Positions 17,073 to 26,552 of a stretch of DNA of 64,000 nt are shown in pieces. The stretch spans positions 1,955 through 65,954 of the forward strand of contig QJWQ01000080.1 of NCBI GenBank assembly GCA_003235325.1, written 5' to 3'. Source of the stretch: Gammaproteobacteria bacterium. GTDB taxonomy: Bacteria > Pseudomonadota > Gammaproteobacteria > Pseudomonadales > Porticoccaceae. Each line of letters begins with the position of its first letter. The stretch's first letter is position 1. Below the pieces are notes generated by a model. That model saw nothing but the letters and a program-made list of their open reading frames with translations, did not search any database and was not told where the DNA came from. The translations under genes and the position numbers were made by a program.

Positions 17073-18461
17073 CTATTGCGGAGTCTCGTGTGTTTTCCTG
17101 TATTTTTTATCCGCCAGGACAAATAGGCCAAAGCCCAGCAATCCTGCCACCAACGACCCTGCCAGGATTCCCAGCCTGGCCTGTACCAGCAATTCCTGAT
17201 GGCCTTCAAATGCCAGGGCGGCGATAAAGAGCGACATGGTAAAACCGATTCCCGCCAATGTCGCCAGGCCGACAACATGCAGGAAGCGCATATCCTCCGG
17301 CAGACTTGCCAGACCGGAACGCAGGTACAACCAGGCAAAGCCGCTTATACCCATAGCCTTGCCGGCCACCATGCCGAGGGCGATGCCCAGTGTCGCCGGG
17401 GAAAGCAGGCTGTCAACCGGCTCTGCCGGCAGAGCCAGGCCGGCATTCAAAAAGGCGAACAGAGGCAGAATGGTCAGACTGACCGGCTTGTCCAGAACAC
17501 TGCCCCAGTGCTGCAGTGGCGTGGTGGTTTTCAGGGCAATCTGTTCGGCCTGTTCCGTCAGGCGATGCTGGTGATTTTGTTCCAGAATGGATTGATTCGG
17601 GTCGTCAAGCTCCTCAAAGTGATCGATCAAATGGCGCATACGACGTATAAACCAGCTGGTTCCCGCATAGGGCCTGGCAGGCACCGCAAGCGCGGCCATG
17701 ATTCCCGCCGTCGTCGCGTGCACGCCTGATCCCAGAATTAACCACCAGAGCACCAACCCGCCAAGCAGATAAAAGACGGGCCGGCGAATTCCGACCAAAT
17801 TAAAAAAGAACAGCACGACAAGAGTGGTGAAAGCCCAGAGGAGCGCGTGGATATCGATCTGCTCTGAATAAAACAGGCTGATTACCAGGACGGCACCAAG
17901 ATCATCGACGATTGCCAGTGCGGACAATATCAGCACAGCCGAGCGCGGCACTCGAGTACCCATGAGGGCCATGATGCCCAGTGCAAATGCCGTATCAGTG
18001 GCCATGGGAATACCCCAACCCCGCAGGGCAACGGCATCGGTGGCATCGGCAAACACCATGTAAATGGTCGCCGGTACCAGCATGCCGCCTATTGCCATGG
18101 AAATGACCAGGCCTGAATGACGTAAATTACGCAGATCGCCCACCAGCGCTTCACGCTTGATTTCCAGTCCAAGGACAAAGAAAAAAAGCACCATAAATCC
18201 CTCATTAACCCAGTGGTGAAGGGAATAACTGATGCTCCACTCTCCCAGCGCCAGGCTCAGAGGTAACTCGTTAAAGGACTGATAGTGTGAGTGGAAATCC
18301 GAATTGGCCAGAACCAAGGCAAGCACCACCGCAAGTATCAGGACAAATCCGGTTACAGACTGACTGTTAAAAAATATTTCAAAGGGCGTCAGAAGCCTGT
18401 TAAATCCCCGTTCCAGCGGTGCATGCCGGCGTTCATGGCTCTTGATTTCGGAGTGCTGCAA
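17073..18461 (-). CDS. nhaA: Na+/H+ antiporter NhaA
   Basis: 462 aa. HWVNEGFMVLFFFVLGLEIKRE, IPMATDTAFALG and LAIVDDLGAVLVI (the DD pair) are typical of NhaA. Confidence 0.93.
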   Translation of the reverse strand: MQHSEIKSHERRHAPLERGFNRLLTPFEIFFNSQSVTGFVLILAVVLALVLANSDFHSHYQSFNELPLSLALGEWSISYSLHHWVNEGFMVLFFFVLGLEIKREALVGDLRNLRHSGLVISMAIGGMLVPATIYMVFADATDAVALRGWGIPMATDTAFALGIMALMGTRVPRSAVLILSALAIVDDLGAVLVISLFYSEQIDIHALLWAFTTLVVLFFFNLVGIRRPVFYLLGGLVLWWLILGSGVHATTAGIMAALAVPARPYAGTSWFIRRMRHLIDHFEELDDPNQSILEQNHQHRLTEQAEQIALKTTTPLQHWGSVLDKPVSLTILPLFAFLNAGLALPAEPVDSLLSPATLGIALGMVAGKAMGISGFAWLYLRSGLASLPEDMRFLHVVGLATLAGIGFTMSLFIAALAFEGHQELLVQARLGILAGSLVAGLLGFGLFVLADKKYRKTHETPQ

Positions 18462-18966
18462 AATTAATTGAATCCTTTACGCATTGTTACTGCCGCGAAT
18501 TTTAAATTAAAGAATGTGCAAGATTCGGACGTGACTTATTTTAGTCGGGAATCCGGCAGTGACAGGGCGCCACTGTCATGTACGAACTACCAAACCTGCA
18601 ATTAATAAAGACATCAGGCAACGAAGGTATCACGGAATTGTGCATCCGCGCCTCAATGGCCAGGCAATATTACATTGCCGGATAAGCCTGAATTTTAGCA
18701 AGTATCGATGTCACTATAAACCGGACCTTTTAAAAACATAAAAAGATTGAATAATTCTGACTCTCCGCAGTTGCAATCATTTGTAAATCTCAATTTCCAC
18801 TTTCATTGATAAGAACAAATCCGGATATAAATATGGCCACCGTGAATTACCTATTATTCTGCACAAATCGGCAAAATTACAGCGGCCTGAAAGCCACTGA
18901 TGTATTTTCTTTTTCAACATTTTGCGCAATATTTTTTTTGACTATAGTCGATGGTATTGACATTAA

Positions 18967-19020
18967 AAAAAACCAGTCTACGGAAAGAGACCAGAAACCG
19001 GTTCAGGAGCCTGGTTTTTT
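18967..19020. terminator. candidate bidirectional terminator inside an AT-rich non-coding stretch
   Basis: AAAAAACCAG (18967-18976) and CTGGTTTTTT (19011-19020) flank inner stems. On the plus strand AACCGG/CCTGGTT is followed by T6. On the minus strand CTGGTCT/AGACTGG (with G-U pairs) is followed by T8. Confidence 0.4.
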
Positions 19021-20147: not shown

Positions 20148-20449
20148 GGCTCGGATTCTCCCATAGAGTGAACGCCGCGCGTGCGACCAATGTCACAGGC
20201 GCGAATGGAGGCACCGGCAAGCTGGCACTTGTTTCAGAGAGAACAAATGCACTACCACATTCTTTAGCAACTTTTTTGGTATTTCTGTAACGACCGTTTA
20301 GCAACAGCAGGTTACTGGCGCCGGTAAGCTTATCGTCAACGACTCACACTGATTGAGCATTTGACGTAAAGCACTTCGGTGAACAGTTTTACCTATTTAC
20401 ATGCCCTCGGGATCGTACCCTCTGAATCCGGTAGAGCCCGACGTGAGCC

Positions 20450-20891
20450 GAGACAGTCACGCAGACCCGCAGGGACACCCGGTCGGCGATCATGAGCCAA
20501 GTGCTGGGCATCGTCTAACGCATCGACGCCACACACCTGAGCCAAAAGGTGGGCTTTAGGAAAAACGCCGCCCAGACCGGCGCAGTCACCCTGATCCGGC
20601 GTATTGTCTCTGCGTTCAATCTCAATTCGAACGCGGCCCGATCCACTTGACGTGCACGGATGCACTAACACCTCAGGCGCAGGATGCGCAGGAGCTGCCC
20701 ACATGCTGTTTCTCGACGGAATGTACATCGACGGTGCCGAGGGGGTCATGTTTCGCTGGATCAAGGCGCGGACTAGTGCTGAGCTTACCTATCTGGCGTA
20801 CACCATCGCTCGCGGGGTTGGTCACTTTCTGGAACGGCAAGGCCTGCTGGAACGAGAAGCCCACGATAATGGGCAAAAGGACTATTTATGA
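20450..20891 (+). pseudogene. IS91/IS801 (Y2 rolling-circle) family transposase remnant, internally disrupted and truncated at both ends
   Basis: Frame a: ...SAIMSQVLGIV*RIDATHLSQKVGFRKNAAQTGAVTLIRRIVSAFNLNSN (in-frame TAA at 20516). Frame b (ORF 20604-20891): ...HMLFLDGMYIDGAEGVMFRWIKARTSAELTYLAYTIARGVGHFLERQGLLERE. Together these match the conserved core TGAVTLIQRFGSALNLNIHFHMLFLDGVY...FRWVKAPTSAEL...ERQGLLERD of IS91-family transposases. The N-terminal Zn/HUH part and the C-terminal catalytic Tyr part are missing. Confidence 0.75.
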
Positions 20892-20941
20892 TAAAGGGAA
20901 AAAAGTACAACCTATGTGACCGGAACGGACCCGGATTGAGA

Positions 20942-21018
20942 TGGCGGACCGGACGGGACTCGAACCCGCGACCTCCGGCGTGACAGGCCGGCATTCTAAC
21001 CAGCTGAACTACCGGTCC
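20942..21018 (-). tRNA. tRNA-Asp (anticodon GUC)
   Basis: The reverse complement GGACCGGTAGTTCAGCTGGTTAGAATGCCGGCCTGTCACGCCGGAGGTCGCGGGTTCGAGTCCCGTCCGGTCCGCCA is 77 nt. It has a near-E. coli tRNA-Asp body, anticodon loop CTGTCAC, and an encoded CCA. Confidence 0.95.
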
Positions 21019-21056: not shown

Positions 21057-21183
21057 AGTCTCTTTCTTTAGAGTCTATACTTTTTAAAACTCTATTTTAG
21101 TTAGACTCTCTTCTAATTGGAGTCTCGCTACATGGAGTCTCGACTCTTCAGAGTCTCACCTTTCAATGGTTTGGCAAGAGTCT
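21057..21183. repeat. cluster of GAGTCT(C) heptamer copies (six direct, two inverted) in the tRNA-Val/tRNA-Asp spacer
   Basis: AGTCTC at 21057; GAGTCT at 21071; GAGTCTC at 21120, 21135 and 21151; GAGTCT at 21178. Inverted AGACTC at 21103 and GACTCT at 21142. This gives seven GANTC sites within 21071-21182. Confidence 0.85.
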
Positions 21184-21258
21184 GGTGGGTGGTACAGGGG
21201 TCGAACCTGTGACCTACGGCTTGTAAGGCCGTCGCTCTCCCAACTGAGCTAACCACCC
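21183..21258 (-). tRNA. tRNA-Val (anticodon UAC)
   Basis: The reverse complement GGGTGGTTAGCTCAGTTGGGAGAGCGACGGCCTTACAAGCCGTAGGTCACAGGTTCGACCCCTGTACCACCCACCA is 76 nt. It has anticodon loop CTTACAA and an encoded CCA. Confidence 0.95.
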
Positions 21259-21381: not shown

Positions 21382-21738
21382 ATGGAAATATTCAAGGAAT
21401 TCAGTATTGAGGCCGCTCACCATCTGCCCCATGTACCGGAGGGCCACAAGTGTGCCCGGCTCCACGGTCACTCCTTTCGGGTTACGATCTTTGTCGAGGG
21501 TCCCGTGGGCAATACCAGCGGCTGGGTGATGGATTTTGCCGACATCAAAACTGCCTGCCAACCGGTTGTCGAGGCTCTTGACCACCGCTATCTGAATGAA
21601 ATACCCGGACTGGAAAACCCCACCAGCGAAAATATCGCCCGCTGGATCTGGCGCCGGCTCAAACCCGGGCTGGAGGGCCTCAGCCGGGTGCTGGTAAGGG
21701 AAACCTGCACCAGCGGCTGTGAATACCGGGGTGACTGA
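21382..21738 (+). CDS. queD: 6-carboxy-5,6,7,8-tetrahydropterin synthase
   Basis: 118 aa. MEIFKEFSIEAAHHLPHVPEGHKCARLHGHSFRV...LDHRYLNE shows the QueD/PTPS motifs C-x3-HGH and the catalytic His. Confidence 0.92.
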   Translation: MEIFKEFSIEAAHHLPHVPEGHKCARLHGHSFRVTIFVEGPVGNTSGWVMDFADIKTACQPVVEALDHRYLNEIPGLENPTSENIARWIWRRLKPGLEGLSRVLVRETCTSGCEYRGD

Positions 21739-21790: not shown

Positions 21791-22558
21791 TCAGGATAGC
21801 ACCAGCACTTCACTGCTGGTGTCTTCCATTGCCGCTTCCAGTGGGCCGGTGAATAGCGGCAGCAGGATATCCCTGGGCACCAGGACGATGTCGTACATCG
21901 ATCGCCGCAAAAGATCGGTGACCTCATGCTCCGTCAGTCCTGCCAGGCGCTCGATACAGGCCCTGGCGCCGAGGCCGGCAAAGGCGGCCACCACATCCAT
22001 CGGCACAGGTCCGGCGGCAATCAGCACAACCTCCCTGACCAGGCCATCACTCACCAGGGATTTGCCAACATCAATCGCCCGACTGGCCTGGAGGCCGCGA
22101 TCATATAATATGCCGAGTCGCCTGGACTTTCGGGTCTGCCGGGACGGCACGGTGGCCTGCAACCTGGATCTGCGTTGGCGCGCCGGAAAAAACACGTCCA
22201 TTCCCTCGCGCATCAGGGCTCTGAGGGAGCGATTGGCCGAAGAGGTTTCAAACTGCAGTTGGATCTTTCGGGATGCGGCCAGTTCATCGAACATGCGTCG
22301 CACCTCGGTTGCCAGGGTCTGTTGCAGGCGTATCAGGGAATCCATATAGAATTCCCGCTCCAGTCCGGTTGACAGGACGATTTCCCGGGCAAATGGCAGT
22401 TTGGCCACCTGTTGCAGCCGGGAGTCCTCCAGTATCAGCCCGAACAGGCTGGTATTCAGGTGTTCCGCCATGGCCACCAGCATCTCCAGGGTGGTGCGGC
22501 TGACGCCGTAAATATCAATTGGCACCAGAATGCCGGTTTGCTCTGCCTTGTCAGTCAT
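21791..22558 (-). CDS. hypothetical protein with two USP-like alpha/beta halves, translationally coupled to the Lon-like protease
   Basis: 255 aa starting MTDKAEQTGILVPIDIYGVSRTTLEMLVAMAEH... Both halves follow a beta-alpha pattern like universal stress protein domains, but I see no G-x2-G-x9-G(S/T) ATP motif. The start overlaps the Lon-like stop (ATGACTGA). Confidence 0.65.
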   Translation of the reverse strand: MTDKAEQTGILVPIDIYGVSRTTLEMLVAMAEHLNTSLFGLILEDSRLQQVAKLPFAREIVLSTGLEREFYMDSLIRLQQTLATEVRRMFDELAASRKIQLQFETSSANRSLRALMREGMDVFFPARQRRSRLQATVPSRQTRKSRRLGILYDRGLQASRAIDVGKSLVSDGLVREVVLIAAGPVPMDVVAAFAGLGARACIERLAGLTEHEVTDLLRRSMYDIVLVPRDILLPLFTGPLEAAMEDTSSEVLVLS

Positions 22559-25010
22559 CGCCGTGTTGGCTCTCGTCGCCCTTGCTGTCGTCATCTTTCA
22601 TGGAAAATTTCTTCTGCAGTTCATTGAGACCGCGGACCCGGGTCAGCACCAGGCCATTGAGGCTGTCGGCAGGGTAATTGCCCTCCCGGTCAGCAGTTCC
22701 CGCCTGATAGCCGGTCAGGAGTTCCAAAGCCTGATCGACAGTTGCCACGCTATAAATATGAAACTGGCCCGCCTCGACGGCATCGATGACATCCCGTCGC
22801 AGCATCAGGTGCACCACATTGGCCCGGGGAATGATCACCCCCTGGTCACCACTGAGTCCCCGGGCTCGACAAATATCAAAAAAACCCTCGATTTTGTCGT
22901 TGACGCCACCTATGGCCTGGACCTGACCCAACTGGTTGAGCGACCCGGTAACCGCCAGGGACTGGTTGACCGGCACACCGGTCAGCGCCGACAACAGCGC
23001 CACCAGTTCCGCCACCGAGGCACTGTCGCCCTCGACGCCACCGTAGGACTGCTCAAAAACCAGGGTAGCCGACAGCGGCAATGGCTGGTTGCGGGCATAG
23101 CGACTGGCCAGTAATGAGGAAATGATCATCACCCCCTTCGAGTGGATCTTGCCACCGAGCTTGGCTTCCCTTTCGATATCCAGCACGCCACCGTGACCGA
23201 GCCGGGCGGTGGCCGTGATTCGTGTCGGCCGGCCAAAGGAATAATGGCCCAGCAGGTAAACCGACAGGCCATTGACCTGCGCCACCCGCGAACCGGCGGT
23301 ATCAACCAGCTGAATATCCCGCAGAATGCTCTCGTGGGCTTTTTCACGCAACTGGTCCAGACGGCGAATGGCGGCATCAATGGCCTGCTGCACATGTTCG
23401 GCACGGGTAAGGTTGCCGCCGGACTGCCTGGCCCGGTAATCACTCTCACAGAGCAGATCGCTCAACTGGTCCAGGTGCAGGGACAGTTTTTCGCTGTCCT
23501 CGACACTGCGGGCACAGTACTCGATGACCCTGGCAACCGCACCCGGTTCCAGCGGCTGCAGTTGCTGTCGGCGCTGCAGGGTGGCGATCAACCGGGCAAA
23601 AAAACGGGTATTTTCAGGGCTGCGTTCGGTTTCCTCGGACATGTCCGCGGCCACCTTGAACAGCTGACCGAATTCCGGATCAAACTGCTCCAGCAAATAA
23701 TAGATATAGCGGTCGCCGGTGAGCACCACCTTGATATCCAGGGGCATGGGCTCCGGTTGCAGCTGAGTGGTGCTGGCGAAGCTGAGGAGCTGGTCCAGGG
23801 ATTGAATGCGGATTTCCCTGGCTTTCAGGGTTCGCTTCAGCATATCCCAGGCAAAGGAATTGCTCAGGACCTTGACCACGTCCAGGACCAGATAGCCGCC
23901 ATTGGCCTGGTGCAGGACGCCGGGTTTGATCAGGGTGAAATCCGTTAACAGGGTTCCCATCTGGGAAATATGTTCGACCCTGCCCACCAGGTTGCTGAAG
24001 GTGGGGTTGTCCTCGTAGATGATGGGTGCACGATCCAGTTTTTCATTGCTCACCAGGACATTGACACTGTATTCCGGGAATTCCCGGACCCTGTGTTTCA
24101 TGTTTTCCGGTTCGGAAGATTCGGCAGCGGATTGCCGGAAAGCATCGGCATTTTCGATGACATTGGCCTGAACCGATTTCAGATAATCCAGAACCGACGG
24201 TTCTTCCTGGTAGCGATTATTGAGTTCGGCAAAGAGCTGATCGATGGCCAGCTGACTGAACTCCCTGTTCAGCTTCTTGAATTTTTCCCGGCTCTCCTTT
24301 TTCCACAGGGGAATCTGCCGAATAATGCTCTTTAATTCATCCTTGAGCTCCTCGATAACTGCCAGGGTCTTTTTCTGTTCGGTTTCTTCAAGGGCCTCAA
24401 AGTCGGCAGAGGCCATGATTTCGTTGTCCCGCATCGGCGCCAGGGTATAGCCGCTCGGGGTCTGCAGCAGGGCAATATTCTTGCTTTTGGCTTTCTCCGA
24501 TAATGCCTGAAAGGCGTTTTTTTCCCGTTCCTGATAATTTTCCCCCAGCTCCTGCAGCCGGGCCTGGTACTCATCACTTTGAAACGTGGCGGGAATACTC
24601 ACCAGGAGGTCCTCCACAAACCTGGCCATGTCTGCCTGCAGGCGGTTGCCCATACCCGGCGGCAGGCGCAGAACCCGGGGCTTGTGCGGCGTCTGGAAGT
24701 TATTGACGTAACACCAGTCACTGATCTGGTGTTGGACACCCGCCTCCCTTTCCAGAAAGTCCAGTAGCAGATGGTGCTTGCCAACACCGGTAGACCCCAG
24801 CAAAAAGATGTTGTAACCGTCGTGCTTGATGTCAACCCCGAACCGCAGGGCCTCGAGTGCTCGATCCTGTCCGAATTGGTTGTCCAGTGATTCCAGGTTC
24901 TCGGTGGAGGTGAAATCAAGCAGGGAGGGGTCACAGAAACGGTACAATTGCTCCCTTCGAAGCGAGGCAGGGAGGGTCGCGGATTGCAATTTTTTTATGT
25001 CATTAACCAT
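22551..25010 (-). CDS. Lon-like protease (AAA_32/LonC-like N-region with long helical insertion + Lon_C Ser-Lys protease domain)
   Basis: Contains GYNIFLLGSTGVGKH (P-loop) and ANGGYLVLDVVKVL (Walker-B position). A ~250-aa Glu/Lys-rich helical insertion is present. C-terminal YGGVEGDSASVAELVALLSALTG...GGVNDKIEGF carries the catalytic Ser and Lys. The start at 25010 has a GAGGG SD 7 nt upstream; an alternative start lies at 25058. Confidence 0.88.
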   Translation of the reverse strand: MVNDIKKLQSATLPASLRREQLYRFCDPSLLDFTSTENLESLDNQFGQDRALEALRFGVDIKHDGYNIFLLGSTGVGKHHLLLDFLEREAGVQHQISDWCYVNNFQTPHKPRVLRLPPGMGNRLQADMARFVEDLLVSIPATFQSDEYQARLQELGENYQEREKNAFQALSEKAKSKNIALLQTPSGYTLAPMRDNEIMASADFEALEETEQKKTLAVIEELKDELKSIIRQIPLWKKESREKFKKLNREFSQLAIDQLFAELNNRYQEEPSVLDYLKSVQANVIENADAFRQSAAESSEPENMKHRVREFPEYSVNVLVSNEKLDRAPIIYEDNPTFSNLVGRVEHISQMGTLLTDFTLIKPGVLHQANGGYLVLDVVKVLSNSFAWDMLKRTLKAREIRIQSLDQLLSFASTTQLQPEPMPLDIKVVLTGDRYIYYLLEQFDPEFGQLFKVAADMSEETERSPENTRFFARLIATLQRRQQLQPLEPGAVARVIEYCARSVEDSEKLSLHLDQLSDLLCESDYRARQSGGNLTRAEHVQQAIDAAIRRLDQLREKAHESILRDIQLVDTAGSRVAQVNGLSVYLLGHYSFGRPTRITATARLGHGGVLDIEREAKLGGKIHSKGVMIISSLLASRYARNQPLPLSATLVFEQSYGGVEGDSASVAELVALLSALTGVPVNQSLAVTGSLNQLGQVQAIGGVNDKIEGFFDICRARGLSGDQGVIIPRANVVHLMLRRDVIDAVEAGQFHIYSVATVDQALELLTGYQAGTADREGNYPADSLNGLVLTRVRGLNELQKKFSMKDDDSKGDESQHGDD

Positions 25011-25213
25011 GAAGGTCACCCTCTGTTGCCATTTGCTCTCTGGGGCCCCAGAGCCCATTGGTGTTAACAGACCCTGGTAATTTACCGGGGAAAGTCATGG
25101 ACCACTGACGGCGCAGGTACCGGGAAACTGCAAGGACCGGCCTGCGGCCACGAGAGCTGGTTGCGGTCTCCAGAGACTTTCGCGGCTGGAGTTCGCCGCC
25201 TGGAGTTCCCGGC

Positions 25214-25645
25214 CTAGAGATAGTCCGGAAGGTGCTCCCTGATGGCAGACTCTGACGTCTGGACCAGATTTATGGCCTGTTCGGAAGCAATGACCTCTTT
25301 TGCTGCCGGACTGAGATTTTTACGCAACTGTCCCAGAAACGCCGGTGCCGCCAGCAGGTAAATCCGCTCACAGTCGCGGGAACTGACACCCTGGTTGATC
25401 AGGCCGCCGATTTCACGGGCAAAGCGCTCGGATTCCTCCCTGGTGGCGTCCCGCTCGTGGCCAAAAGTATGGGTGCCGCTGCTGCTGTTAACCACGCGAC
25501 CGACACGATCAGAAACAAGGTCCTGTTCTTTTTCCCTCGAAGAAACGTGGACCCTGCCTTCGAATTCCACGAGTTTTCCATTGGCGGCGGATGTCGAGAA
25601 AAAACGTGTTCGACTGGCGTCTGCTACTATTACCCAGATTTTCAT
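25214..25645 (-). CDS. host-attachment-family protein (release-factor-like, baeRF-type fold as I recall)
   Basis: 143 aa. MKIWVIVADASRTRFF...DRVGRVVNSSSGTHTFGHERDATREESERFAREIGGLI...IYLLAAPAFLGQLRKNL matches the 'protein required for attachment to host cells' family pattern (..FA..va..L..a....fd.L.lvApp..LG.LR..L). Confidence 0.75.
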   Translation of the reverse strand: MKIWVIVADASRTRFFSTSAANGKLVEFEGRVHVSSREKEQDLVSDRVGRVVNSSSGTHTFGHERDATREESERFAREIGGLINQGVSSRDCERIYLLAAPAFLGQLRKNLSPAAKEVIASEQAINLVQTSESAIREHLPDYL

Positions 25646-25734
25646 AGGCCAAACCTCATATCGACTCTGTTTTTTTAATACTAGTTACTCCTGCGGCATT
25701 TGCCATATCCCAGATCAACCGTCGTGAATATTTG

Positions 25735-26019
25735 ATGAAGATCCTCTGCCTGATACTGGATTTCAGCCTCCCCGGGTGCCGGTCGCTGAAGGAAAAGCGC
25801 CGCCGTGTTCGCAAACTCAAGGACCGGTTTGGAGCAACACCCAACATTGCCGTCACCGAAAGCGGTTTTCACGACCAGCCCGACCGCAGCCAGTGGTCTT
25901 TTGTGGTCATAGGCCGGGATTTGCGCCTGATTGATGCCGAATGCCAGAAGATTGAGCTGTACTGTCACAGCTTCGTCGAAGGTTATGTGATCAACAGTCT
26001 CAGGCAGCAACTACTGTGA
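25735..26019 (+). CDS. DUF503 (YlxP-like) protein
   Basis: MKILCLILDFSLPGCRSLKEKRRRVRKLKDRF....AVTESGFHDQ...W matches the DUF503 pattern (L.l.ip.s.SLKeKR.v...l.drl). ATG at 25735; TTG at 25732 is also possible. Confidence 0.8.
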   Translation: MKILCLILDFSLPGCRSLKEKRRRVRKLKDRFGATPNIAVTESGFHDQPDRSQWSFVVIGRDLRLIDAECQKIELYCHSFVEGYVINSLRQQLL

Positions 26020-26552
26020 AGCCGGCAAGAGTCTTTATTGCCCTGCCGATAGGCCAGGATCAGCAGCAGATACTCCGACGCGCAACCAAAAAACTGATGG
26101 AGCTTCCCGTCCGGTGGATCAGGCCGGAAAATTTCCACCTGACCCTGGCCTTTCTCGGCAATTGTGAGCCCCGCACACTGGTGAGGATTCGACATCACCT
26201 CGGCGACATCTCCGCCGCCCCCTTTGGTCTTGGCTTTCGGACCATTGCGCCATTTCCGTCAGCGATGGGACCAATGATTGCCGCCTTACCCGAAACTTCC
26301 GCGACTCTGGCGGCACTGAGGCAGCAGGTGGTGGCACATCTGGCAATGGCCGGGATTGAGCTGGAGACCAGACCCTTTCGCCCCCATGTCAGTCTCGGGC
26401 GGATTGCCCGGGGCCATGTCCGCGAGCAGACGGTTCCAACCCCCATGAGTCTGCAATGGACCCTGGCAGTGGAACATTTTTCGTTGGTGAAAAGTGAGCA
26501 AACCTCCCAGGGCAGCCGCTACGAGACGCTGGCCGTATTTGATTTGAAGTAG
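26016..26552 (+). CDS. thpR: RNA 2',3'-cyclic phosphodiesterase (2H phosphoesterase ThpR/LigT)
   Basis: 178 aa with two H-x-(T/S)-x motifs (FHLTLAFLG and PHVSLGR). The GTG start overlaps the DUF503 stop (GTGA). Confidence 0.85.
   Translation: MKPARVFIALPIGQDQQQILRRATKKLMELPVRWIRPENFHLTLAFLGNCEPRTLVRIRHHLGDISAAPFGLGFRTIAPFPSAMGPMIAALPETSATLAALRQQVVAHLAMAGIELETRPFRPHVSLGRIARGHVREQTVPTPMSLQWTLAVEHFSLVKSEQTSQGSRYETLAVFDLK

Follow-up and report, generated by a model that had tools for sequence, protein, structure and literature searches.

We analyzed a 64,000-nt stretch of DNA (referred to as the window in its entirety; contig QJWQ01000080.1 of a gammaproteobacterium of the family Porticoccaceae) in which five genes lie on either side of an 89-bp divergent intergenic region (25646-25734, no strand). 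On the minus strand are a 143-aa Host_attach/baeRF family 12 gene (25645-25214; open reading frame [ORF] and Pfam), the gene for an 819-aa LonC-type Lon-like protease (25010-22551; ORF, Pfam, structural relative, and alignment), and the gene for a 255-aa divergent tandem universal stress protein (USP; 22558-21791; ORF, structural model, and Foldseek). On the plus strand are a DUF503 (YlxP-like) gene (25732/25735-26019; Pfam DUF503, 2.2e-18) and a ThpR/LigT RNA 2',3'-cyclic phosphodiesterase gene (26016-26552; TIGR02258, 2.8e-33; LigT_PEase, 6.8e-18). A preliminary description of this DNA had proposed that all five genes form a single response to cleaved RNA and stalled ribosomes. Its genes, overlaps, and distances were all recovered from the ORF list and the sequence, but the comparative data presented below suggest that the minus-strand genes are best read as a three-gene stress operon, not as a five-gene RNA-damage module.

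The LonC and USP genes overlap in ATGACTGA, where the ATG of USP (22558-22556) precedes the TGA of LonC (22553-22551), and DUF503 and ThpR overlap in a GTGA at 26016-26019; both were read directly from the sequence. The first ATG of the LonC ORF, at 25058, would give 835 aa; the ATG at 25010, which gives 819 aa, is backed by homologues and is preceded by a GAGGG Shine-Dalgarno sequence. The USP ORF can start at 22594 (267 aa) or at 22558 (255 aa).

The 819-aa protein matched the Pfam families AAA_32 (1.7e-53), LonB_AAA-LID, LonC_helical, and Lon_C (3.5e-09), and its best relative in the Protein Data Bank (PDB) was MtaLonC/TTC1975 (4fwd; E, 2.5e-95). Its Walker A (GSTGVGKH) and Walker B (GYLVLDV) motifs are degenerate; the corresponding MtaLonC motifs are GPPSLGKHE and GYLILDA (motifs compared with PMC3391209). 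The Ser-Lys dyad is intact, with GDSAS and NDKIEG invariant in the homologue alignment and aligned to the dyad region of MtaLonC; identity among five aligned LonC sequences was 63-81%. Judged from these features, the protein belongs to the LonC subfamily (MEROPS S16) of ATP-independent Lon-like proteases. MtaLonC of Meiothermus taiwanensis has no ATPase activity, which has been explained by its degenerate Walker A (GKH) and a Walker B without Glu; MtaLonC and TTC1975 of Thermus thermophilus degrade unfolded substrates only (PMC3391209), and MtaLonC switches to a chaperone form upon heating (PMC3391209, PMC13069640). The physiological role of LonC proteases has been called unknown (PMC3391209). 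The window protein shares with these enzymes (PDB 4FWD, 7EUY, and 8K8V) the AAA_32, LID, and Lon_C domains, a degenerate Walker A of the form G..GKH, a Walker B lacking the catalytic Glu, and the intact dyad; by analogy, it is expected to lack ATPase activity and to degrade only unfolded proteins. It differs from them in being approximately 90-120 residues longer, with the LonC_helical N-terminal region.

The 255-aa protein itself had no match in Pfam, NCBIfam, or PADLOC. A profile built from its alignment (A1) matched USPs among PDB sequences only weakly (E, 0.18), and a fold comparison was therefore needed. The AlphaFold2 (AF2) model (predicted local distance difference test [pLDDT], 84.6; predicted TM score [pTM], 0.81) had as its top Foldseek matches the tandem USP TTHA0350 (3ab8; E, 1.8e-8) and UspE (4wy2). 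Ten distant LonC-coupled orthologues were also compared with Pfam Usp (PF00582): eight scored above the cut-off (E, 6e-6 to 6e-22), one fell just below it, and one (L029) had no match. The model thus agrees with the earlier call of a two-domain USP-like protein and points to a divergent tandem USP with two alpha/beta domains in one chain, as in TTHA0350, UspE, and Rv2623. The window protein differs from these three in lying below Pfam detection, in having lost the ATP segment of domain 1, which is deleted in the alignment, and in carrying a signature common to the LonC-coupled USPs, GL.[VL]ED..L....LP...E, which is 80-98% conserved and is not a generic USP motif. The ATP-binding motif G-2x-G-9x-G(S/T) was absent from the window protein and from the whole gammaproteobacterial clade among the 74 members scanned; a motif of this kind was kept in 13 of the 74, mostly from Chloroflexota. 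It lies at approximately residue 128 in the USPs of L026, L034, L038, L046, L047, L053, L057, L060, L072, L084, and L087. The USP partner may thus sense nucleotides in some lineages and not in others.

The 143-aa protein matched two Pfam families over its full length: Host_attach (PF10116; 1.3e-35, 123.4 bits versus a cut-off of 26.7) and baeRF_family12 (PF18856; 4.3e-28, 99.1 bits versus a cut-off of 27.7). The best PDB match to its AF2 model (pLDDT, 77.9) was the mycobacterial Balon Msmeg1130 (8v9j_z; E, 2.6e-6; TM score normalized to the query [TMq], 0.63). Next in rank were aRF1, eRF1, and Pelota, and across all of these matches the probability was 1.0 and the TMq 0.52-0.65. The preliminary description had grouped the host-attachment family with the eRF1/Pelota release-factor fold; the baeRF_family12 and Foldseek matches bear this out for aeRF1, Pelota, and Balon. 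The protein spans only the middle (M) domain of aeRF1/Balon, which binds the peptidyl-transferase center, and it does not have the three-domain aeRF1 architecture (an N domain for the decoding center, the M domain, and a C domain that binds EF-Tu). As modeled, it is homologous to the aeRF1/Balon middle domain, consists of that one domain, and has an RNase H-like fold. The region of the catalytic loop (residues 38-63) is predicted to be disordered (pLDDT of <50). Neither GGQ nor a conserved Gln is present in this loop, which reads NSSSGTHTFGHE in the window; its Gln is not conserved in the family. In the alignments, His59 of the loop is invariant across the family, and a conserved basic helix following the loop, RFAR, is likewise kept. 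Burroughs and Aravind regarded basic residues that are conserved in the post-loop helix as a sign of rRNA binding, and stand-alone baeRF-1 families have been predicted to be noncatalytic A-site binders (PMC6514570). The lone M domain is a candidate ribosome binder.

To define which of these genes travel together, neighborhoods were compared at several depths. The family of the 255-aa protein comprised 31 clusters, and neighborhoods were examined for six members. Only one of the six, L008, from the same metagenome and 63% identical, had the five-gene arrangement together with queD; the other five (36-41% identity) had kept LonC and the overlapping USP alone. A scan with the LonC alignment, limited to one genome per species, returned 80 loci (48-66% identity) from Gamma-, Alpha-, and Betaproteobacteria, Chloroflexota, and Acidobacteriota, in which partners were sought with home-made hidden Markov models. 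USP lay immediately 3' of LonC in 64 of the 80 loci, which otherwise had unrelated flanks, and its start overlapped the LonC stop in 54 of 70 (median gap, -4 nt). This adjacency, the overlap, the unrelated flanks, and the signature specific to these USPs establish LonC-USP as a conserved, translationally coupled cassette of two genes that is widespread across several phyla.

The link to Host_attach is narrower. Host_attach was found directly 5' of LonC in 6 of the 80 genome loci, in addition to the window and L008. An independent scan with Host_attach, which returned 80 metagenome loci at 31-46% identity, placed LonC directly 3' of it in 21, with gaps of -4 to 141 nt and one of 587 nt; in L103, L111, and L115, the two genes share ATGA-type overlaps. 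LonC was by far the commonest neighbor of Host_attach, followed by protein-isoaspartyl methyltransferase (PCMT) in 7 loci. Among the Host_attach-LonC metagenome loci with at least 1 kb of sequence after LonC (n = 8), none had USP. When the LonC tree was rooted with the proteins of Thermus and Meiothermus, all Host_attach-linked loci fell within one large gammaproteobacterial clade, and a sub-clade of it had kept Host_attach and lost USP. Thus, the link is real and long-lived but clade-restricted: Host_attach was added directly upstream of LonC-USP in a gammaproteobacterial clade and then retained. What extends beyond close relatives in the 80-locus scans is therefore the linkage of Host_attach, LonC, and USP, and not the five-gene neighborhood.

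We also examined the regions upstream of these operons. In related loci, FNR/Anr-type boxes TTGATnnnnATCAA recur at a set distance from Host_attach, 67-85 nt upstream of the gene. Boxes matching at at least 8 of 10 positions were present in 19 of 82 loci, versus 3.6 +/- 2 in shuffled sequences, and those matching at at least 9 of 10 in 6 of 82, versus 0.24 +/- 0.47. Loci with such boxes include L124/L135, L157, L028, L021, L029, L031, L137, L025, and L112, with or without LonC. In the window and L008, what is left of the box is TTGATCTGG and a right half that has degenerated. Scans for sigma-32, sigma-54, and sigma-70 consensus sequences upstream of the operons detected no enrichment over shuffles.

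The recurrent neighbors are stress genes. Elsewhere, the LonC-USP cassette is found beside genes for HSP20, DnaK/DnaJ-like proteins, canonical tandem USPs, and ECF sigma factors; the recurrence of HSP20, DnaK/DnaJ, USP, and PCMT genes, and not of RNA-repair or defense genes, speaks against the role in RNA or ribotoxin damage that had been suggested earlier. DnaK-like and DnaJ-like flanks, judged by eye from N-terminal motifs, were also seen at three loci where LonC lacks USP (L056, L063, and L090). PCMT (Pfam, 2e-68), which has a protein-damage and stationary-phase function, lies beside Host_attach in L121, L124, L128, L135, L152, L157, and L158. At L093 (5162-6438), a canonical 274-aa tandem USP gene (PF00582) lies 15 nt upstream of Host_attach with no LonC, a pair that parallels bll4644/bll4645 of Bradyrhizobium. 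A link between USP and Host_attach may exist that does not depend on LonC. In Bradyrhizobium, microoxia induces two Host_attach genes, bll5315 and bll4645, the latter adjacent to the USP gene bll4644 (PMC6515984). In L101 and L108, a RelA/SpoT-type gene, recognized by eye, is convergent to the Host_attach or LonC unit.

We tentatively propose, at somewhat less than an even chance of being right, that the three genes constitute an operon for low-energy or proteotoxic conditions, in which a "mini-Balon" silences or parks ribosomes while a USP-tuned LonC clears unfolded proteins. The operon would be induced when oxygen or energy is limiting or under some other proteotoxic stress, as suggested by the FNR/Anr-type boxes in related loci. 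The mini-Balon would bind the ribosomal A site on the peptidyl-transferase-center side of the large subunit, without peptide release, and this binding would leave ribosomes parked or silenced. LonC, gated or tuned by a USP that does not bind ATP, would remove unfolded or damaged proteins without spending ATP. Because the USP start overlaps the LonC stop, the two proteins would be made together, and they most likely act as a physical complex.

Several observations weigh against this proposal. In the window itself, the divergent intergenic region holds only a degenerate half-site, TTGATCTGGGATAT (25705-25718, minus strand), that matches the FNR box at 6 of 10 positions and lies where relatives carry a full box of this type. 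The 143-aa protein has neither the N nor the C domain, which hold Balon and aeRF1 on the ribosome, and ribosome binding by its lone M domain is a prediction. Approximately three quarters of the sampled related Host_attach genes are not beside LonC, and no USP is seen in 16 of the 80 loci of the LonC genome scan, although three of these contigs end too early to tell. The complex of LonC and USP is deduced from gene coupling alone. The studied LonC genes of Thermus and Meiothermus have no USP neighbor, so their biochemistry may not transfer fully, and the long spacer of 203 nt between Host_attach and LonC makes an internal promoter possible.

The main rival explanation assigns no ribosomal role to the Host_attach protein, which would instead be an adaptor, anti-adaptor, or preferred substrate of LonC in a purely proteolytic switch. 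The tight operonic coupling to LonC, including the three ATGA-type overlaps, would fit such a switch, as would the missing ribosome-anchoring N and C domains and the disordered loop at residues 38-63, a segment of the kind that LonC degrades (PMC3391209). However, the family keeps the basic RFAR helix and the invariant loop His, its best structural matches are ribosome-bound factors, and most of its members occur without LonC, which requires that the family have some activity apart from LonC. We consider a purely proteolytic switch unlikely.

It is also conceivable that Host_attach and LonC are merely long-lived syntenic neighbors and that LonC-USP is the sole functional unit. Since all Host_attach-LonC loci fall within one LonC clade, a single ancestral juxtaposition could explain them, and the 203-nt length of the spacer in the window also counts in favor of this view. 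Yet the adjacency survives to approximately 50% LonC identity while both flanks change, the two genes are on the same strand with gaps that are often -4 to 73 nt, and the arrangement persists through the loss of USP. We regard mere synteny as doubtful.

A bolder reading is that baeRF12-LonC(-USP) is an ATP-independent bacterial counterpart of ribosome-associated quality control (RQC). The baeRF12 protein would dock at the A site/peptidyl-transferase center of stalled or idle ribosomes and recruit the LonC chamber, with USP as a stress-sensing gate. When energy is limiting, LonC would then degrade nascent chains or proteins of the ribosome. In the eukaryotic RQC pathway, the aeRF1-like Vms1/ANKZF1, acting with Cdc48 and the proteasome, likewise ties a release-factor fold to AAA-type proteolysis, but this is an analogy only: the window protein has no GGQ/GxxQ loop, no ATPase activity is expected here, and action on stalled large subunits is unsupported. 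This reading appears improbable to us.

In the five-gene model of the preliminary description, which we now rate as very improbable, the genes would survey ribotoxin-cleaved tRNA and rRNA and stalled ribosomes, with ThpR healing ends that carry a 2',3'-cyclic phosphate, while stalled complexes would be cleared by the protease together with the release-factor-like protein. The identity of ThpR was upheld at the equivalog level (TIGR02258; 115.3 bits versus a cut-off of 65.7), and the confirmed release-factor fold, the 89-bp region common to both gene sets, and the occasional adjacency of Balon genes to the RNA ligase gene rtcB (PMC10901736) are all compatible with the model. DUF503-ThpR lies divergently beside the LonC operon in four loci only: the window, L008, L018, and L094, the last with the same arrangement as the window on a truncated contig. 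L018 is the single case among the 80 LonC genome loci and L094 the single case among the 80 metagenome loci found with Host_attach; the pair is missing from the other 79 of each. The claim that the five genes are one conserved module is thus not sustained. The four positive loci lie in or near one LonC sub-clade whose sister lineages lack the pair, a pattern that fits eroding synteny, and no nuclease, ligase, toxin, or defense component is present. The only other proximity of ThpR to Host_attach (L106, L114, and L117) corresponds to the PilZ-pncC-thpR-recA region and was rejected as a link. The low rating of the model follows from the RNA-repair half not being conserved with the rest.

DUF503-ThpR instead looks like a separate, translationally coupled pair that is a local neighbor and not a member of the system; its divergent region is shared with the operon because of local synteny. 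Wherever both ends of the pair are visible, DUF503 and ThpR overlap on the same strand (three loci: window, 25732-26552; L008, 283-1097; L018, 4968-5791), which hints that DUF503 works with the RNA 2',3'-cyclic phosphodiesterase. A literature search on DUF503/YlxP found no link to ThpR.

A role in phage defense or abortive infection, with the Lon-like protease serving as BrxL does in BREX, is scarcely credible, since, even though Lon-like proteases occur in defense systems and a putative insertion sequence (IS) remnant and tRNA genes lie approximately 0.5-1 kb away, PADLOC-DB 2.0 yielded for the five proteins only a marginal BrxL match confined to the shared Lon_C protease domain (E, 0.002) and nothing for the other four, no BREX genes are present, architecture and context differ from those of BrxL, the flanks in >150 loci are housekeeping and stress genes and not defense islands, queD synteny is kept in relatives, and LonC is highly conserved with a broadly vertical tree, unlike fast-moving defense genes. 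Nothing in these data connects the operon to phage defense or to ribotoxins.

Among known systems, one close parallel is Balon, a hibernation factor of the aeRF1-like type; in hibernating ribosomes, its middle domain touches the peptidyl-transferase center (PMC10901736). The middle domain of Balon, whose clade includes the Psychrobacter urativorans protein, Msmeg1130, and Rv2629, is the best structural match of the 143-aa protein; both lack GGQ, and both are encoded in stress-type operons (PMC10901736). In contrast to Balon, the 143-aa protein has neither the decoding-center (N) nor the EF-Tu-binding (C) domain, belongs to Pfam family 12 (Host_attach) and not to the three-domain families, and has as its operon partner a protease and not RaiA/HPF; ribosome binding is only predicted for it. 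The window LonC gene has a coupled tandem USP gene and a baeRF12 gene, while those of Thermus and Meiothermus have neither. The idea that TTHA0350 neighbors the Thermus LonC gene (TTC1975) was rejected, since the studied LonC genes lack both partners. No USP was found at the Meiothermus (L174) or Thermus (L175) locus, where the gene after LonC encodes an S41 peptidase or, in convergent orientation, a penicillin amidase.

All components belong to known families (LonC, baeRF family 12, USP, DUF503, and ThpR). Neither a LonC-USP nor a baeRF12-LonC operon was described in the literature searched, the supplementary neighborhoods of Burroughs and Aravind (2019) being outside its scope, in agreement with the earlier remark that no described system of this composition is known. 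Stress operons with an aeRF1-like factor are known, and this one appears to be a minimal, protease-linked version; the LonC-USP and baeRF12-LonC links appear undescribed. The LonC-USP coupling, which holds for most LonC genes outside Deinococcota, offers a candidate partner for LonC and a candidate function for one USP lineage. The LonC operon, the FNR-type boxes, and the PCMT and USP neighbors place the uncharacterized baeRF family 12 in low-oxygen or stationary-phase physiology, and the system lends itself to testing directly if an aeRF1 middle domain on its own is able to silence ribosomes. The analysis also removes a tempting but unsupported annotation as five-gene "RNA-damage surveillance."

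The Host_attach-LonC spacer (25011-25213, minus strand; 203 nt) had been described as structured, with a repeat and a palindrome. The repeat is real, a 14-nt tandem repeat (CGGCTGGAGTTCGC / CGCCTGGAGTTCCC) at 25183-25210, but the structure is not supported: folding of the spacer gave no significant structure (z = -1.72), and the palindrome is weak, a 5-bp inverted repeat with a 2-nt gap and nothing more. No terminator-like site was found in the spacer, an Rfam search of it had no match, and it could not be aligned with the 95-nt spacer of L008, a 63-81%-identical relative. A structured or conserved RNA was dropped from consideration on these four negative results; the spacer is not a conserved element. 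A second, imperfect direct repeat with 35-nt spacing (TACCGGGGAAAGTCATGGACC / TACCGGGAAACTGCAAGGACC) is present at 25083-25138 and is not kept in L008.

On the other side of the operon, the queD gene (PTPS, 1.6e-37) has its stop at 21738, 52 nt from the USP stop at 21791, and genes for tRNA-Val (21183-21258) and tRNA-Asp (20942-21018) lie 0.5-0.8 kb from the operon, as previously noted. A nearby ORF (20604-20891) had been labeled an IS91 remnant; Pfam gave no match at E of <=1e-3, and the label is unverified, although this short ORF looks like a transposase tail. For the operon, queD, the tRNA genes, and the putative IS remnant are no more than local context. At 18001-19000 and 20393-20900, beside the tRNA-Asp/Val pair, GC content falls to 0.44, and this low-GC stretch may be the scar of an integrated element unrelated to the operon.

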